Below the pieces are notes generated by a model that saw only the letters and a list, made by a program, of their open reading frames with translations, was not told the DNA's origin and searched no databases. Below, piece after piece: positions 3,098-18,352 of a DNA stretch of 64,000 bases. Source of the DNA: a phage; sequence record PZ583742.1; one strand, 5' to 3'. How positions within the stretch are numbered: position 1 is the first letter of the stretch; every line of letters starts with the position of its first letter. The position numbers and the translations under genes are program-made.

Positions 3098-3316
3098 ATG
3101 ACTGCTAAAACTGTTAAAGAAATTGAAAAACAAATCCGTGCACTAATCTGTGAAGGTCTGACTGCGGCGGATGAAACCGGCGAACACTTCCACGCTGGCG
3201 GCGAAGAATATATTCCAGCTTCTAGTCCGGAATATAACGATTATGAATGGGTTCGTGACGAATATTGTATTCCAGAAGGTGAAGGTTTCTGGTTTAACTC
3301 CTCTATGTCTTGCTAA
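3098..3316 (+). CDS. small protein, tandem paralogue family member 4 (C-terminal WFNSSMSC)
   Basis: ORF with AAGG RBS; related C-terminal motif. Confidence 0.45.
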   Translation: MTAKTVKEIEKQIRALICEGLTAADETGEHFHAGGEEYIPASSPEYNDYEWVRDEYCIPEGEGFWFNSSMSC

Positions 3317-3325
3317 GGTGATAAA

Positions 3326-3559
3326 ATGACTACTACTGTTGAACATGGTGAATTAGAAAAAGCTGCCCTTGAACTGGCTGCATTGTATAAGAAAGTAAAA
3401 GATATGGCTAACGCTCAAGATTTCGGTATTGAGCTTGACGAATATGATGGCGAGGTTCGTCTCGAAGACTGGTTGTACAGCTCTTGCTACGGTGAAGACG
3501 CTGGTCGCACCTTTGTTGCTCAACCTGACGGTAAAATCTGGTACCCGAGTAGCTGCTAA
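3326..3559 (+). CDS. small protein, tandem paralogue family member 5 (C-terminal WYPSSC)
   Basis: ORF with AAGG RBS; related C-terminal motif. Confidence 0.45.
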   Translation: MTTTVEHGELEKAALELAALYKKVKDMANAQDFGIELDEYDGEVRLEDWLYSSCYGEDAGRTFVAQPDGKIWYPSSC

Positions 3560-3603
3560 AATTATCACAAGGATGTGATAGGAAAACTTATGTGCAGAAA
3601 TTT

Positions 3604-3635
3604 AGTGTACAAGTCTAAAGAAACGGAGTATCATT
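3604..3635 (+). promoter_or_regulatory. early promoter-like element TGTACA-N17-TATCAT
   Basis: One of at least 10 copies of the recurring motif (a)GTGTACA-N16/17-(T/C)AT(A/C/G)AT upstream of gene starts. Confidence 0.45.
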
Positions 3636-3662
3636 ATCTCGTCAACTAATGAGGAAAATATT

Positions 3663-3830
3663 ATGTATAATGTTCTTATTGTTTTTGTCACTCACCCGCA
3701 AGGTGGAGTAAGACAGAATACTTCTCAAGTGGTTCAATTTTCTTCACTAGAGGCCGCCAATCTTGCTGCTTCACGAATTGAAGCGAAAAAATCGGCACTT
3801 GGAAAATATGAAGTAACTCGTCTTTACTAA
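3663..3830 (+). CDS. small hypothetical protein (55 aa)
   Basis: Short ORF flanked by repeated RBS module AATGAGGAAAATATTATG; below ORF-track size cutoff. Confidence 0.3.
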   Translation: MYNVLIVFVTHPQGGVRQNTSQVVQFSSLEAANLAASRIEAKKSALGKYEVTRLY

Positions 3831-3843
3831 TGAGGAAAATATT

Positions 3844-4803
3844 ATGATGTTAGTTATTGGTTCTCGTGCATTACATAACGCTGGTCTGATTGAAAGTCAG
3901 AAAATTGAAAACTCTGATTGGGACTTCATCGCTGACCAGGTCTCATGGAACCACTTTAAAGCACGTATGTTCGGTGCTCATGTTCCTGTGGATAACCCTG
4001 ATGTCCAAGCTTTTAAATGTATGTACAATGGCAAAGAAACCTATTTTGAAGCTTATATTGTCCGTGCCCTGACCAACGTACGAGAAATTACTGGCGAGCT
4101 TCAAGACGAAGATTTCACCTCAAGTTATCGTCTCCTGAAATATGCTGAAAATCATATTAAAAAAGATCGTCTTACAGGTTTTTACTGGGCGACTCCTGAT
4201 ATTTGTCTGGCAATTAAATTGTCTCATCGTTACCTGAAGAACAATCCATTCTTCTTGAAGACCATGAGTCATATTAATTACCTTCGCAATAAGGGTGTTG
4301 TTCTTAATGATGAACTACAAAAAATCATGCTGCAACGTCAGGCAGAAACACTGTCATACAGTCACCCTAAACTAGACGTGGGCAAGAAAACTTTCTTTAA
4401 TGATACAATCTATACCCTTGACCATGACTCCATCCACGAGGCTGTGGCGCTTGCTGATAAGCCTGCATATAAGTTCTATATGAAGGATGATTCAGAAGTC
4501 ATGACCTCGCGTGAAAAATTTGAAGCGCTCCCTGATGTTATTAAACTGGCAGGGGTTTATGAAGAAGCATGTGTGCTCGCTCTGGAGCGTTCGCAGGTTC
4601 CTAATGAGTTCAATATCTCTCCATCTGTGAGCTTCCATATTGCGCTGGAAAAAGTCTGCACCTCCATTACTTCTGGATGGTTCCGTGCCTTCGCATATGA
4701 AAATTACGGCAAAATTATAAGTATGTATAATGCTTTAGGTCATGACGATTATATTAAACGTTTTAAGGCTAACCAACATTTAATTCGTCCTTTCACAAAA
4801 TAA
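3844..4803 (+). CDS. hypothetical protein (319 aa), no T4 counterpart recognised
   Basis: Long ORF with RBS TGAGGAAAA before ATG. Confidence 0.55.
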   Translation: MMLVIGSRALHNAGLIESQKIENSDWDFIADQVSWNHFKARMFGAHVPVDNPDVQAFKCMYNGKETYFEAYIVRALTNVREITGELQDEDFTSSYRLLKYAENHIKKDRLTGFYWATPDICLAIKLSHRYLKNNPFFLKTMSHINYLRNKGVVLNDELQKIMLQRQAETLSYSHPKLDVGKKTFFNDTIYTLDHDSIHEAVALADKPAYKFYMKDDSEVMTSREKFEALPDVIKLAGVYEEACVLALERSQVPNEFNISPSVSFHIALEKVCTSITSGWFRAFAYENYGKIISMYNALGHDDYIKRFKANQHLIRPFTK

Positions 4804-13434: not shown

Positions 13435-13728
13435 ATGGACCTTATTCGAGGACTTTCTCTAAGTCTATTACTAATGGGCTGTTTAGGCCCAAATATGTCC
13501 TCTGCTACAGATGGTAAATTTACCCAGTATGCAGATAGTGCGATGCAAATCTATTCGCAATTCAAAGAACCCAGCGTCGAGCAGTCCGAACAATTTTGGG
13601 CTTTTATTAAAACTGAATGGAACAATAAGAGTCAATGTGTAAATGAAATCACATGTCAAATTGATGGCCGTGCTGCTGCAGTCGAATACGCTAAATTAAT
13701 GAAGGTAAAATTGGAAGATGAAATTTGA
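13435..13728 (+). CDS. rI: lysis-inhibition regulator RI (antiholin)
   Basis: 97 aa; C-terminal half SVEQSEQFWAFIKTEW..C..AVEYAKLMKVKLEDE resembles T4 RI; exact late promoter TATAAATA at 13356-13363; RBS AAGGAG. Confidence 0.7.
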   Translation: MDLIRGLSLSLLLMGCLGPNMSSATDGKFTQYADSAMQIYSQFKEPSVEQSEQFWAFIKTEWNNKSQCVNEITCQIDGRAAAVEYAKLMKVKLEDEI

Positions 13729-14101
13729 TGATTTCGTAACGGGTCGTGGGTCTGAGGTGGATTCATATATTGGGTGGTTGTTAGTCTCTTTGGCTTATTT
13801 TAAATCCGCCCATCTTGAAACCAAAAGTTACGCCCGCCATAAAGCTTATGATTTCTACTTCACAGAAATCCAAGGTCCACTCGACCAGTTCAGTGAGCAA
13901 TGGTTAGGTTACAGCGGGAAACAATACAAAGCTGCATTACCGTCCGCCTCGGACTTGCCGAAAGATACAATTTTGTTTTTAGATGAAATGATTAAAAGCT
14001 CGGAAAGAGTCTATAAAGTTGTACCTAAGGCTATTCAATCGACTCTGGACGATATCGTTGGAGTTTTCTTTCAGACTAAGTATCTGTTAACACTAGAGTA
14101 A
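13718..14101 (+). CDS. hypothetical protein
   Basis: ORF overlapping rI stop; followed by terminator hairpin. Confidence 0.45.
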   Translation: MKFDDFVTGRGSEVDSYIGWLLVSLAYFKSAHLETKSYARHKAYDFYFTEIQGPLDQFSEQWLGYSGKQYKAALPSASDLPKDTILFLDEMIKSSERVYKVVPKAIQSTLDDIVGVFFQTKYLLTLE

Positions 14102-14107
14102 TTCAAA

Positions 14108-14134
14108 AGGTCTGCCTTCGGGTGGACCTTTTTT
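14108..14134 (+). terminator. rho-independent terminator (UUCG tetraloop hairpin plus T-run)
   Basis: aggtctgcc-ttcg-ggtggacct followed by TTTTTT. Confidence 0.6.
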
Positions 14135-14135
14135 C

Positions 14136-14205
14136 ATTTAGGGGGTTTACATCCTTATAAAAAGGGTGTACTATTATCCCATCAACTACTGAGGAGAATA
14201 CAATG
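14136..14205 (+). repeat. promoter plus RBS-hairpin cassette, copy 1 (PeSL-like)
   Basis: catttagggggtttacatccttataaaaagggtgtactattatcccatcaactactgaggagaatacaatg; about 85% identical to 47341-47412. Confidence 0.6.
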
Positions 14206-14406
14206 AGAATTAAAAATATCAAGATTGATGCAGTTAATACTGGTGATGAGGTTGTTATCTATCTTAATGATTATGCAATCTTTATGGACAGTGCCACTGA
14301 TGAAGAAGTGGTTGAACTCTTGCAGAAAGCTCCATTTGAACTGTGCGAAGAAGATGCTACTCATCTTTCATCAGCAATTTTCTCATTATCATATGTGGTG
14401 GAATAA
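14203..14406 (+). CDS. hypothetical protein
   Basis: First gene after terminator/promoter/RBS cassette; RBS GAGGAGAA. Confidence 0.45.
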   Translation: MRIKNIKIDAVNTGDEVVIYLNDYAIFMDSATDEEVVELLQKAPFELCEEDATHLSSAIFSLSYVVE

Positions 14407-14600
14407 TGATTACTTTAGAACAAGCAAAGAGAATCTCTGCATTAGTTGCAGCAATTCGTGAAGCAGATGATGAAATGGCAGCTTATGCTTGGGCAGCCCC
14501 ATCTGTATCTGGCGGTAAAGAATTAGAAGCAAAAGTTGGCAATGCTCTGGAAGCATTGGATATGTTCCTTGACGAAATTATTGATTACAGGACTGCATAA
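14406..14600 (+). CDS. hypothetical protein
   Basis: ATG overlaps upstream stop (TAATG). Confidence 0.4.
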   Translation: MITLEQAKRISALVAAIREADDEMAAYAWAAPSVSGGKELEAKVGNALEALDMFLDEIIDYRTA

Positions 14601-14782
14601 TGTTAACTACTGAACAGATTGAGAAAATTATCAAACTCGCTTGGCACATTGAAAATGCATCCAATGACCTGGCTGTTGAATATTGTGAAGGTTATTCATA
14701 TTCTGGAATAGAACAGTGTAAGCGTGATTTGAATAGTTCTAAAGAAGAATTAATTGCTTATCTGAATGGGTTGAAAGAATAA
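14600..14782 (+). CDS. hypothetical protein
   Basis: ATG overlaps upstream stop. Confidence 0.4.
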   Translation: MLTTEQIEKIIKLAWHIENASNDLAVEYCEGYSYSGIEQCKRDLNSSKEELIAYLNGLKE

Positions 14783-15039
14783 TGGCTGTTGGATTTGCAA
14801 AAGATGGTGCTGAACAGTTAGAGATGGAAGCGGTTGTACAGGCCGCTATCACCCATGCGAGAGCACAGGTTGCAGTTGAAAGGGAGTCTGCTGAATTCTG
14901 TTTTGACTGCGACGAAAAAATTCCTGAAGCGCGGAGACAAGCGATTAAAGGTGTGATATATTGTGTTGGTTGTCAATCAATGCATGATGAAATTTTTAAA
15001 CGTGAACCAAGAAATTGTTGGCACAGGAGCATGAGATGA
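14782..15039 (+). CDS. DksA/TraR-type C4 zinc-finger protein
   Basis: CFDCDEKIPEARRQAIKGVIYCVGCQ: CxxC-x17-CxxC with IPxxR, characteristic of TraR/DksA family. Confidence 0.5.
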   Translation: MAVGFAKDGAEQLEMEAVVQAAITHARAQVAVERESAEFCFDCDEKIPEARRQAIKGVIYCVGCQSMHDEIFKREPRNCWHRSMR

Positions 15040-15130
15040 TTTATTACTTAGAACCCTGGGCTTGGTCGACAATGATTATAGGTCCTATTTTAATCGGTTT
15101 ATTCTTTTCGTGGTTAGTGAGGAAAATGTA

Positions 15131-15346
15131 ATGTTATATGACCCAAGCGGCAATTCTGAAAATGGTGTGATTGTTCTGGAGCCTGAGCATCCAGTTGGTG
15201 ACGTATACCGCCCAGTTGAAGTATGCGAATGTAATTTTGTTAAAGGTAATACCGGTGGGATTTCCATTGAGCAAGATGATGATGTTATTTACCTGGATGC
15301 AAGCCAAGTAGAAGCACTTTATAGTATTTTAAAACATAACCGTTGA
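15131..15346 (+). CDS. hypothetical protein
   Basis: ATG 15131 after GAGGAAAA. Confidence 0.4.
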   Translation: MLYDPSGNSENGVIVLEPEHPVGDVYRPVEVCECNFVKGNTGGISIEQDDDVIYLDASQVEALYSILKHNR

Positions 15347-15356
15347 GGAACAGAAA

Positions 15357-15917
15357 ATGATTATTGAAACAACTGAATTGTTTGGCGAACTGACCGCTGA
15401 AGTAGTTAATAATGCAATTGAGCTTTGTCAAGAAGACGATAAAATCGTACTGACTATCCAAGATATTAAACCACTTTATGATTTAAAGGTTTTGGATAAA
15501 GACGAATATCTTAGTGGTAGTTTTAGTGGTGTATTTGATATTAACGATGATGTATGTGCTCGCATTTATAAGCACGATGGTGGGTTTAATATTGAAACAG
15601 ATGAAAAATGTCTGAGCATTAGCGATTCTGATAAATTCTTTGATTGTATTTTCAAACTGTTCCAGGAAGAATGTAAGCCAGAAGTTGAATGGAAAGTCCC
15701 AGGTCAAGATGCAGTGATTCGCTCTAGTGAAACCTTTGACGGTGACGAAGAGGAATTGAATTATAATACTGAACTGACTGTTGTTCAGCATGATGGTCGT
15801 GACCAACTATGTATTACCCAAGTACACGATGGTTTTAATGAAGTGGTATTTACTAAGGACGAGCTAAAAGTTTTAGTCTCTTATCTGAACTCTGTTATCC
15901 CAACTATGAACTCTTAA
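15357..15917 (+). CDS. acidic hypothetical protein
   Basis: 186 aa ORF with RBS GAGGAA. Confidence 0.45.
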   Translation: MIIETTELFGELTAEVVNNAIELCQEDDKIVLTIQDIKPLYDLKVLDKDEYLSGSFSGVFDINDDVCARIYKHDGGFNIETDEKCLSISDSDKFFDCIFKLFQEECKPEVEWKVPGQDAVIRSSETFDGDEEELNYNTELTVVQHDGRDQLCITQVHDGFNEVVFTKDELKVLVSYLNSVIPTMNS

Positions 15918-15927
15918 GGAAAATATT

Positions 15928-16380
15928 ATGATTATCAATGCAAACTCTTGGCACGTTAAATTACACGACCGTTTTTATGACCGTCATTCTCGACCACACT
16001 CTTTGTGTGCTTACTTCTGGAAAATGGTTTGGGCTTGTTTTGCTTGTGCTGTTGTTGCAGGTAGTATGCTTTTTGGATTAACTGTTGCAGGAGCTGGTGT
16101 ATTAGAGCATTTCTTTGTATTAAGTACTCCTGTTCTGTTGAGTCTAGGGTTTGTTTTAGGGTTGATTGCAATAGCTCTTATTATTGCGCTATCCATTGGT
16201 TTGGCATTAGGTGCGATGAATTTGCACGCATGGTATGATTTACGTAAAGAAGAAAAGGAATGGCAACGTATTCTAGCCAAACGTGAAGGAAAGGAAACTA
16301 AAGAAAACATCGTTATTCAATACATTAAAGCTCGTAAATCTAAGATGTGTCCTGTAATCCACTTCGAGGGCAAAAAATGA
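15928..16380 (+). CDS. membrane protein (2-3 TM helices, charged C-terminal tail)
   Basis: Hydrophobic segments ACFACAVVAGSMLFGLTVAGAGVL and LSLGFVLGLIAIALIIALSIGLALGA; stop overlaps start of downstream nucleotidyltransferase (ATGA). Confidence 0.5.
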   Translation: MIINANSWHVKLHDRFYDRHSRPHSLCAYFWKMVWACFACAVVAGSMLFGLTVAGAGVLEHFFVLSTPVLLSLGFVLGLIAIALIIALSIGLALGAMNLHAWYDLRKEEKEWQRILAKREGKETKENIVIQYIKARKSKMCPVIHFEGKK

Positions 16381-17387
16381 GAACAGTTATGAAAGGCTAC
16401 TTCGGTAGCCATCTTTATGGAACAAGCACTCCGGAATCTGATGTTGATTTTAAAGAAATCTTTGTTCCTCATCCGCGAGATATCCTGCTCGGAACCGCGA
16501 TGAACCATACAAACCTGAACACGAATAACACGGCTACCAAAAATACAAAAGACGATATTGACCATGAACTTTATAGCCTGAAATATTTCTTTAAACTGGC
16601 AGCCGAAGGCGAAACCGTTGCTCTGGACATGATTCACACCCCGGCTAACCTGGTTGTCAAATCCGATTTACCAGATGTATGGAAGTTTATTCAAGACAAC
16701 CGTTCGCGGTTCTATACAACTAACATGAAAGCCTATTTGGGGTACGTCCGTAAGCAAGCTTCCAAATATGGTGTTAAAGGTTCTCGATTGGCTGCACTGC
16801 GTGGTGTACTGGCAATTGTTAACCAGATTCCTGAACAGTGGGTCGATTATCAAGAAGGAATCCCTGATAGACTTCGTCGTACTAAGGTAGAAGATATCAA
16901 ACACAGACTCCCTGAAAACGAGTTCTGTGAATGGGTATTCCATAACCATGAGAAAACAGGTCCACAAACGTTCTATACTGTTCTCGGACGTAAGTACCAA
17001 ACTACTCTGTCATTAATCGAGCTCAAGCAATCTCTGAATAAACTCGACGCCGAATATGGTGAACGTGCTCGTAAAGCAGAAGCTAACGAAGGTATTGATT
17101 GGAAAGCACTGAGCCATGCTTATCGTGCAGGGTATCAATTGATGGAAATCTACCAAACAGGTGACTTGGTATTCCCATTGCGTGAAGCCTCTATCATTAA
17201 GCTGATTAAAGCTGGTGAATTACCATTTAAAGAAGTTCAAGAACTTCTTGAAGATACTGTCGATTTAGTTGAAGTTCTGGCCATCCAGGCTGCTAAGAAT
17301 GGTATGCCTGATAAGGTAGACATGAAGTTCTGGGACAAGTTTGTTGAAGAGGTATACCTTGACAACCACAATTCCTATTATCGTTAA
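16377..17387 (+). CDS. putative nucleotidyltransferase (Pol-beta superfamily fold)
   Basis: N-terminal GS-x10-DVD signature (GYFGSHLYGTSTPESDVDF) plus downstream DDIDHE; 336 aa. Confidence 0.5.
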   Translation: MRTVMKGYFGSHLYGTSTPESDVDFKEIFVPHPRDILLGTAMNHTNLNTNNTATKNTKDDIDHELYSLKYFFKLAAEGETVALDMIHTPANLVVKSDLPDVWKFIQDNRSRFYTTNMKAYLGYVRKQASKYGVKGSRLAALRGVLAIVNQIPEQWVDYQEGIPDRLRRTKVEDIKHRLPENEFCEWVFHNHEKTGPQTFYTVLGRKYQTTLSLIELKQSLNKLDAEYGERARKAEANEGIDWKALSHAYRAGYQLMEIYQTGDLVFPLREASIIKLIKAGELPFKEVQELLEDTVDLVEVLAIQAAKNGMPDKVDMKFWDKFVEEVYLDNHNSYYR

Positions 17388-17394
17388 TGAAGAA

Positions 17395-17583
17395 ATGAAG
17401 GTCTTCTTATCATACGGAAGACCTAATAAAGGTCGGCGCTGGTATCTCGAAGCAGTCTGTCGGGAAACTGGCAGACGAATCAACAATAAGTACATATGTA
17501 AACCAACTCCCAAACAAACTCGCAGGTTTGTTAACTGGGCTATCAATACTATAAGATTCCATAATTTTTGGAGTGCAATCTAA
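17395..17583 (+). CDS. small basic protein
   Basis: 62 aa ORF rich in R/K; followed by terminator. Confidence 0.35.
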   Translation: MKVFLSYGRPNKGRRWYLEAVCRETGRRINNKYICKPTPKQTRRFVNWAINTIRFHNFWSAI

Positions 17584-17603
17584 GGGCCGGATGGCCCTTT
17601 TTT
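17584..17603 (+). terminator. rho-independent terminator between convergent + genes and minus-strand collagen-like gene
   Basis: gggcc-ggat-ggccc followed by TTTTTT. Confidence 0.6.
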
Positions 17604-17605
17604 GT

Positions 17606-18352
17606 TTATGAAGTCACTGTTTGTTCGGCTACTAACAATGCGGAGGTTATTGTAAAGTTGCCGCCATTTGGCATAACAGTTATAGCTGTACCATTGGTTG
17701 CCATTGCCTCATCTTTATCAATGCTAAAGAACGTTGTAAAAGACAAAATATCTGTAGCATTTTCCGGACGATTCTGTATATAAGTGTTTCCGTTGGTTCC
17801 AACGAAATTTAATGTTATACTTCGAGCTTGCGAGGCTCCTGCAAAATTACCAATAAGGTTGAGTTTAAACATTAGGCTTCTGTCTTGGTTATATGGCCAC
17901 AACTTATCATCAGTGGTTCTAAAAAACGGAGATAGAGTCCCTGCAGTCGGTGGAATCCCCTTTAAAACACTAATTATGTTTGAAGTCGTACCATTAGTTA
18001 ATAGAACGTTTATACCACTCCAAAACACCTCGGATTTTTCCCTCTTTCCTGCTGTATCAGTTAAAAAATCATCAACAGTTCCTGTATTTCCCAAGTCAAG
18101 CCATATCTGATAAGAAGATTTTCCATCCCCACCCGGTTCTCCTTTTGGTCCGGGTACACCCGGTTCTCCTTTGGGACCAGGCGGACCCGGTATCTGAGTT
18201 TCCGAGCTGGACATAGTTTGGAAAAAACGCTCTTTGCTATCTGTAGGGGTATTCGGCAACACCATAGTAGAACCAAACAAATACCAATTATCAGCCAAGG
18301 CAGCCTGGACTTTTTCATTGAGTTCATCAACAGTTCTTCCGGATAAAATCAT
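17606..18352 (-). CDS. collagen-like repeat protein with tail-fibre-type motif and beta-rich C-terminal domain
   Basis: Minus-strand 248 aa ORF with RBS AAAGGAG 8 nt before ATG; seven G-X-Y triplets (GPPGPKGEPGVPGPKGEPGGDG) followed by KSSYQIWLDLGNTGTVDDFL, then N/T/S/G-rich C-terminal domain. Confidence 0.7.
   Translation of the reverse strand: MILSGRTVDELNEKVQAALADNWYLFGSTMVLPNTPTDSKERFFQTMSSSETQIPGPPGPKGEPGVPGPKGEPGGDGKSSYQIWLDLGNTGTVDDFLTDTAGKREKSEVFWSGINVLLTNGTTSNIISVLKGIPPTAGTLSPFFRTTDDKLWPYNQDRSLMFKLNLIGNFAGASQARSITLNFVGTNGNTYIQNRPENATDILSFTTFFSIDKDEAMATNGTAITVMPNGGNFTITSALLVAEQTVTS

Follow-up and report, generated by a model that had tools for sequence, protein, structure and literature searches.

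An NrdC.11/RlaP-family nucleotidyltransferase with a probable role in RNA-end repair lies beside a membrane-protein gene in the rI-nrdC region of a T4-type phage

A 64,000-nucleotide (nt) stretch of the phage record PZ583742.1 (the window, to which coordinates refer unless another locus is named) was examined for two overlapping plus-strand genes, which encode a 150-residue membrane protein and a 336-residue nucleotidyltransferase. The window was found to be 99.9% identical to Escherichia phage vB_EcoM_RZ (RZ; Tevenvirinae, Gaprivervirus), and the annotation of RZ places the locus between rI and nrdC, as an initial annotation made from the letters of the window had proposed. The plus-strand genes are ordered tk, rI, rI.-1, the mobD.x genes, mobD.1, the membrane-protein gene and the nucleotidyltransferase gene, followed by nrdC.9 to nrdC. 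Our analysis identifies the nucleotidyltransferase as NrdC.11 of the RlaP family and suggests that it most likely serves RNA-end repair alongside the phage enzymes Pnkp and Rnl1, a reading to which we assign a probability of roughly 0.6. The features of the locus are:

15357-15917, plus strand: mobD.1, with a match to Pfam T4_y05I.
15928-16380, plus strand: membrane-protein gene, 150 residues, based on the open reading frame (ORF), hydropathy and PHROG 944.
16366-16380, plus strand: gene junction read directly from the sequence, with the Shine-Dalgarno sequence GAGGG at 16366-16370 and then ATGA at 16377-16380.
16377-17387, plus strand: nrdC.11 ortholog, a 336-residue RlaP-family (PF10127) Pol-beta-type nucleotidyltransferase, based on sequence, family match and structural model.
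16404-16448, plus strand: codons for the catalytic motif G10-S11 ... D22-V23-D24, invariant in 84 homologues.
16551-16568, plus strand: codons for D59-D60-I61-D62-H63-E64, based on conservation and on strand 61-67 of the model.
17395-17583, plus strand: small, very basic ORF, 62 residues, with matches to Pfam DUF7279 and PHROG 8921.
17582-17599, no strand assigned: terminator-like hairpin AAGGGCCGGATGGCCCTT, then TTTTTGTTT, based on a consensus scan and the sequence, with a putative function.
17606-18352, minus strand: convergent gene beyond the hairpin, 248 residues, an ORF matching Pfam Phage_tail_NK.

The enzyme start codon ATG (16377-16379) and the membrane-gene stop codon TGA (16378-16380) share the tetranucleotide ATGA, with the GAGGG element positioned 6 nt before the ATG. 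Direct reading of the coordinates and the junction thus confirmed the overlap described in the initial annotation, as well as the small basic protein and terminator-like hairpin with a T-run that it had placed after the gene pair. Relatives were detected in 1513 phage records for the enzyme, 769 for the membrane protein and 212 for the small ORF; each of the three genes is conserved across hundreds of phages, which rules out the reading of any of them as a chance ORF. A scan of positions 13500-17700 for T4 late promoters (TATAAATA), MotA boxes and strong early promoters gave no convincing match, and the membrane-protein and enzyme genes appear to lie within a longer transcription unit.

The N terminus of the 336-residue protein (MRTVMKGYFGSHLYGTSTPESDVDF) presents G10-S11, ten intervening residues and D22-V23-D24, with DDIDHE at residues 59-64; this is the GS-x10-DVD signature and second acidic cluster on which the initial annotation had based its assignment to the Pol-beta superfamily. 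The protein is 80% identical over its full length to T4 NrdC.11 (NP_049709), and its counterparts are named nrdC.11 in Shigella phage SP18 and annotated as a nucleotidyltransferase in RZ. In Pfam, the protein scored 49.4 bits (cut-off 23; E-value 6.4e-13) with the model of the RlaP family (PF10127, 'RNA repair pathway DNA polymerase beta family'), the alignment running over residues 8-135 of the enzyme and over positions 25-143 of the 249-position profile; this family was found in all of the 120 enzyme homologues listed. The enzyme also matched PHROG 388 ('nucleotidyltransferase') with an E-value of 6e-131. By sequence, the 336-residue protein is orthologous to T4 NrdC.11 and is an RlaP-family Pol-beta-type nucleotidyltransferase. 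It shares with T4 NrdC.11 (i) the catalytic motifs; and (ii) the place in the early region between rI and nrdC, with mobD.1 lying upstream. The T4 locus differs in having the homing endonuclease gene mobD directly upstream of nrdC.11, with no gene of the membrane family, and nrdC.10 downstream, where in the window a DUF7279 ORF is followed by a minus-strand gene with a tail-needle-knob domain. The initial annotation had allowed that the protein might prove to be a conserved T4-core gene of known unrelated function; nrdC.11 is a conserved T4-type gene, but its function is not known to be unrelated.

Conservation was examined in an alignment (A1) of 84 enzyme homologues at 34-52% identity. Residues G10, S11, S21, D22, D24, Y131, H247, R250 and P267 were invariant, while D60, D62, D84, K130, R137 and a DWKA motif (241-244) were conserved in at least 90% of the sequences. 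D62 was also invariant in a further alignment (A2), and the structural model suggests that D62 (or D60), at the start of strand 61-67, is likely the third metal-binding carboxylate. Relatives occur in phages of hosts ranging from Escherichia to Aeromonas, Acinetobacter, Vibrio and Rhodobacter, and an exhaustive search with the enzyme returned 3211 cluster representatives at an E-value of 0.001 or better. These findings bear on whether the gene is a functionless remnant, in decay or catalytically inactive, within a hyperplastic region, an idea that would fit the viability of T4 mutants without nrdC.11-mobD.3 (PMC9825161) and the many homing-endonuclease insertions in the region. We regard it as extremely improbable: a full-length ORF is retained in 1513 phage records across many host genera, the matches extend to the thousands of cluster representatives noted above, and all catalytic and many noncatalytic residues are invariant at 34-52% identity.

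Structure prediction by AlphaFold on the A1 alignment yielded a model with a mean predicted local distance difference test score (pLDDT) of 95 and a predicted template-modeling score (pTM) of 0.85. In the model, an N-terminal domain of mixed alpha/beta type is followed by a segment rich in beta strands (residues ~150-210) and, at the C terminus, by a helical bundle that matches HEPN-like bundles. Foldseek searches of the Protein Data Bank (PDB) returned weak matches (E-value ~0.01), of which the top ~20 were all nucleotidyltransferases. The two checks proposed in the initial annotation, a nucleotidyltransferase fold and conserved aspartates, were thus borne out by the model and by the invariance of D22 and D24 in the 84 homologues, and its superfamily assignment holds on the PF10127 match together with conservation of GS, DxD and D60/D62.

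Other nucleotidyltransferase families were found to be poor counterparts. The only other such family listed by Pfam was the generic NTP_transf_2, below its cut-off (14.8 bits against 21) and limited to residues 9-26; PolyA_pol, the head domain of CCA-adding enzymes and poly(A) polymerases, gave no match at E-values up to 0.1. NCBIfam and PADLOC returned sub-threshold matches alone, confined to the 17-residue GS...D motif, and no signal of CD-NTase, cGAS or CBASS type was present in Pfam, NCBIfam, PADLOC or the structural matches listed. The CD-NTase/cGAS-DncV enzymes and the class II CCA-adding enzymes share with the window protein the generic GS...DxD motif of the Pol-beta superfamily only; they differ in having no Pfam, NCBIfam or PADLOC match here and in being absent among the structural matches listed, where the related RNA-tailing enzymes Cid1 and TUT7 appear at TM-scores of 0.11-0.12 only. 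Both of these candidates from the initial annotation were set aside: a CD-NTase/cGAS-like signaling enzyme lacks family and fold support, and a CCA-adding enzyme lacks a family match. Kanamycin nucleotidyltransferase/ANT(4') and the nucleotidyltransferases of MNT-HEPN type are likewise dissimilar, with ~10% identity, no family-level sequence match, small-molecule or protein acceptors, and no linkage to RNA-repair genes.

The gene neighborhood of the enzyme clade was analyzed at 80 bacterial/archaeal loci (enzymes of 34-52% identity, nearly all approximately full-length, with 33-39% as a second figure for the full-length homologues) and on 79 viral contigs, with neighbors counted within 6 kb and 4 kb of the enzyme gene, respectively. 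An RNA-repair neighbor was found at 22 of the 80 bacterial/archaeal loci, in the form of RtcB, the kinase-phosphatase-ligase Pnkp, Hen1, Ro60/TROVE or a T4-type PNKP, and representatives of these were confirmed by Pfam. At five loci the Pnkp gene ended no more than 11 nt from the enzyme start codon. RtcB, Rnl1, Rnl2 or Pnkp was encoded near the enzyme at 11 of the 79 viral loci, three of which displayed the gene order Pnkp, Rnl1, enzyme. From the general rarity of such genes, repair neighbors are estimated to occur by chance at ~1% of loci or fewer. The aligned repair-linked homologues retained 16 key residues and most of the middle segment, with a single exception that carries D60E. Thus, the NrdC.11 clade is linked to RNA-repair genes. 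Furthermore, Pnkp, Rnl1 and Rnl2 are all encoded elsewhere in the RZ genome, and therefore the partners for a heal-fill-seal pathway are present. On this evidence from family and neighbors, the repair of tRNA or RNA 3' ends, which the initial annotation had offered as an alternative, is the favored function.

Anticodon nucleases of the RloC type cut tRNA and then take out the wobble nucleotide, which defeats repair by T4 Pnkp and Rnl1; no phage answer to these nucleases turned up in the present analysis. The RlaP enzymes of Pseudomonas fluorescens and P. aeruginosa add one or two nucleoside monophosphates (NMP), or their deoxy forms (dNMP), to the 3'-OH of RNA, while DNA and protein (E. coli proteins included) are not substrates; the enzymes prefer Mn2+ and the 5' half of a cleaved-tRNA mimic, and label many RNA species with little specificity for the nucleoside triphosphate (NTP) (bioRxiv 10.64898/2025.12.29.696909). 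A tRNA short of one anticodon-loop nucleotide partly regains aminoacylation via RlaP once religated (bioRxiv 10.64898/2025.12.29.696909). In jumbo phages, RlaP is the commonest end-restoring nucleotidyltransferase and tracks with RNA ligases, and phage RlaP has been predicted to act ahead of the ligation step by putting back the nucleotides that RloC and similar nucleases take out (PMC7824862). Like Pseudomonas RlaP, the window protein (i) scores above the PF10127 gathering threshold; (ii) is predicted to have an N-terminal nucleotidyltransferase domain with three conserved aspartates and a C-terminal helical domain; and (iii) belongs to a clade linked to RtcB and 5'-phosphate RNA ligase repair operons. 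The fold described for P. fluorescens RlaP comprises an N-terminal nucleotidyltransferase domain and a C-terminal helical domain, with its last helix packed on the N-terminal domain (bioRxiv 10.64898/2025.12.29.696909).

We infer that the phage enzyme shares the activity of Pseudomonas RlaP, targets broken tRNA, and cooperates with Pnkp and Rnl1. According to this model, the phage Pnkp would first take off the 3' phosphate of a broken RNA, the likely target being the 5' half left when a host nuclease of RloC type cuts and trims the anticodon loop of a tRNA. NrdC.11 would then extend the 3'-OH by one or two untemplated nucleotides, using a pair of metal ions bound to D22, D24 and D62 (or D60), after which the phage Rnl1 would reseal the loop. 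The 3'-OH product of RlaP suits a 5'-phosphate ligase such as Rnl1, and the outcome would be a full-length tRNA rather than one that is a nucleotide short.

Several observations weigh against this reading. The measured activity is that of Pseudomonas enzymes, which belong to RlaP cluster 1/1a, whereas T4NrdC.11 is assigned to a separate cluster 5 of unknown function (bioRxiv 10.64898/2025.12.29.696909). The model suggests that the beta-rich segment of ~60 residues is an addition relative to the characterized RlaP enzymes; this, together with the separate cluster and the Pfam match to residues 8-135 only, means that substrate and product could differ. Searches of PDB sequences with the single protein and with the 84-sequence profile gave no meaningful match, and the P. 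fluorescens RlaP structure was not among the results. The neighbor counts derive from crude ORF calls on metagenome-assembled contigs with no computed background. Unlike the repair operons of the wider clade, the gene stands alone in T4-type phages: no ligase gene is adjacent to the enzyme gene in the window, and in T4-type phages it is not beside pnkp or rnlA. The viability of the T4 deletions spanning nrdC.11-mobD.3, already mentioned, implies that any role of nrdC.11 is conditional. Finally, the junction with the membrane-protein gene is kept within several genera, which may reflect local translational coupling or a lineage-specific partnership.

These differences leave some room for an active enzyme with another acceptor, such as tRNA 3'-CCA ends, mRNA or small RNA to be tailed, or a protein or small molecule to be nucleotidylylated, for example a HEPN RNase toxin of the host that would be AMPylated in the MNT manner. 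The divergence of the clade from characterized RlaP over the C-terminal two-thirds is consistent with this, as are the broad RNA labeling and low NTP specificity of Pseudomonas RlaP and a weak, motif-only match to MntA (E-value 0.015). We nonetheless consider another acceptor unlikely. The MntA and PADLOC matches are limited to the 17-residue GS...D motif, and the CCA-adding and poly(A) polymerase families are unmatched. Furthermore, E. coli proteins and DNA are not substrates of Pseudomonas RlaP, and the neighbors of the clade are RNA end-healing and end-sealing enzymes rather than toxins or tRNA maturation genes.

The 150-residue protein upstream has a long hydrophobic stretch at residues 25-102 (strongest at ~33-100), a basic N terminus, and a highly charged, net-basic C-terminal tail. 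It matched PHROG 944 with an E-value of 7e-55; no Pfam family scored above threshold, and scans of Pfam, NCBIfam and PADLOC revealed no recognized domain. In an alignment (A3) of 23 diverse family members, the N-terminal motifs M-x-I-N-x-N-S-W-H and L-C-x-Y-F-W and a C-terminal tail Y-I-K-A-R-K-x-K-x-C-P-x-I-x-F were identified; H9 and C141 did not vary, and W8, C27 and K139 were conserved in at least 90%. The retention of H9, C27 and C141 in the predicted cytoplasmic N- and C-terminal segments of these 23 members hints at a metal or redox site. The AlphaFold model, built on a shallow alignment (A4), was poor (pLDDT 66, pTM 0.30), with long helices at 26-62 and 67-119, and a Foldseek search of the PDB with this low-confidence model gave three matches, all with E-values above 6 and none to HalA, the membrane channel of the Hailong system.

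A gene of the membrane family, as detected by a hidden Markov model (HMM), was found within 4 kb of the enzyme gene at 36 of the 79 viral loci and was absent from the other 43. It abutted the enzyme gene at only 10 of the 79, all with enzymes at least 68% identical to the window protein; at the other loci with the membrane gene upstream, the two were 349-2607 nt apart with other genes or a homing endonuclease between them. The pair is split by at least one other gene in phages of Klebsiella, Enterobacter and Acinetobacter type. No family member was detected anywhere in the 168,903 bp of T4, though nrdC.11 is kept there, and none was detected at the 80 bacterial/archaeal enzyme loci. The ATGA overlap with the membrane gene is kept in Gaprivervirus-type and T2-type relatives, and the junction is identical in six close relatives. 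In Klebsiella phage PKO111, the enzyme gene makes the ATGA overlap with an unrelated, soluble upstream gene, a junction sequence that recurs in Klebsiella-type loci. Within the surrounding 14 kb of the window, 14 of 31 same-strand neighbor pairs overlap, 6 by exactly 4 nt; the ATGA overlap is therefore a product of the gene packing of this genome and not evidence for a two-protein system. It reflects this tight packing with, perhaps, some local translational coupling. An obligate membrane-enzyme operon is ruled out by T4, by the insertions of homing-endonuclease and other genes, and by the bacterial/archaeal loci.

Homing endonucleases have inserted repeatedly at the point where the membrane gene meets nrdC.11 (16377-16380). 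In T4 (locus L003, 12430-13209), mobD occupies the junction in place of the membrane gene, while in a close, Gaprivervirus-like contig (L009) a 766-nt homing-endonuclease insert at 3235-4000 separates the membrane gene from the enzyme gene. In the T2 record PV648363 (L004, ~1887-2501), the membrane-family HMM matches two reading frames and the annotated N terminus is unlike the family, which suggests that the membrane gene of T2 is frameshifted or that the record contains a sequencing error.

The initial annotation had read the gene pair as a minimal nucleotide-signaling module, and a two-gene system of this kind could also be a counterpart or antagonist of Hailong. In Hailong, as summarized in a review (PMC13276650), short DNA made by the nucleotidyltransferase HalB holds the membrane channel HalA shut; it is the only known system with this layout, a nucleotidyltransferase paired with a membrane channel. 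The window resembles it in the pairing of a nucleotidyltransferase gene with a membrane-protein gene and in the nearly identical position of the DxD motif, which is D21/D23 in HalB (PDB 9dbh and 9dbj; mutant entry 9dbi) and D22/D24 in the window protein. The likeness to HalB, however, is at the level of fold: identity is 13% over 143 residues with no sequence-level match, neither the PDB sequence searches nor PADLOC gave a significant match, and HalB (~217 residues) is without the middle and C-terminal domains of the phage enzyme. HalB also makes DNA oligomers, whereas RlaP enzymes do not extend DNA, and the membrane protein of the window is neither conserved with the enzyme nor similar to solved structures, its poor model having no fold match to HalA or to any other protein. 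The conserved overlap in Gaprivervirus-type and T2-type relatives speaks for a module, and the conserved His and Cys in the predicted cytoplasmic ends suggest that the membrane protein is probably more than a passive anchor. Set against this are the restriction of adjacency to close relatives, the splitting of the genes elsewhere, the lack of the membrane gene in T4 and at all 80 bacterial/archaeal loci, the same ATGA overlap with an unrelated gene in PKO111, the routine nature of 4-nt overlaps, and the association of the clade with RNA-repair genes instead. A two-gene module is thus very unlikely. There is a similarly slim chance that in Gaprivervirus, Mosigvirus, Dhakavirus and T2-type phages the membrane protein is a true partner of NrdC.11, whether as an inner-membrane tether or gate or as a Hailong-like mimic or antagonist, with the overlap setting the ratio of the two proteins. 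The gene for the 150-residue protein is best explained as an accessory gene in its own right within the variable early region between rI and nrdC.

Downstream of the enzyme gene, the 62-residue ORF encodes 14 Lys/Arg against 2 Asp/Glu, a charge that suggests that the protein may bind nucleic acid. The ORF scored 32.4 bits with Pfam DUF7279 (cut-off 24.5), matched PHROG 8921 with an E-value of 6e-34, and is missing from the RZ annotation (RefSeq NC_070780). A DUF7279 ORF lies 8-11 nt past the enzyme stop codon at 11 of the 79 viral loci, distant Klebsiella-type phages included; the latter have the ORF directly after nrdC.11 even though their membrane gene lies apart from the enzyme gene. The GC-rich hairpin with a T-run at 17582-17599 probably acts as a terminator between the plus-strand unit and the minus-strand gene, and the DUF7279 ORF and the hairpin are best explained as closing the plus-strand unit. 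The 248-residue protein encoded on the minus strand (17606-18352) has a collagen-like Gly-X-Y run (GPPGPKGEPGVPGPKGEPGGDG) and, at its C terminus, a tail-needle-knob domain of Sf6 type (Phage_tail_NK, E-value 2e-31); its gene is antisense to the early cluster, occupies the place of nrdC.10 in T4, and converges on the hairpin of the enzyme unit.

A second hairpin was identified within the enzyme gene. At 16395-16410 (plus strand), 19 nt into the ORF, the codons of the catalytic GYFGS motif form a hairpin that has a perfect 6-bp stem and a UUCG tetraloop (GGCUAC-UUCG-GUAGCC). The hairpin codons are identical at two loci with enzymes 71% identical to the window protein; at a third (68%) the stem is kept with a UUUG loop, and synonymous changes abolish the hairpin in T4, T2 and PKO111. 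This hairpin may affect translation or mRNA stability.

Overall, the gene was already known as nrdC.11 and RlaP, and the window adds no new concept to it. Among T4-type phages, nrdC.11 is an unremarkable accessory gene with wide conservation, from a family that has been named, whose role has been predicted, and whose bacterial members have been measured biochemically; the pairing with a membrane protein, which gave the locus the look of a signaling module, arises from compact gene packing in one phage group. If NrdC.11 does restore the wobble nucleotide, it would complete the classic story of T4 tRNA repair, an idea that is already in print (PMC7824862; bioRxiv 10.64898/2025.12.29.696909).

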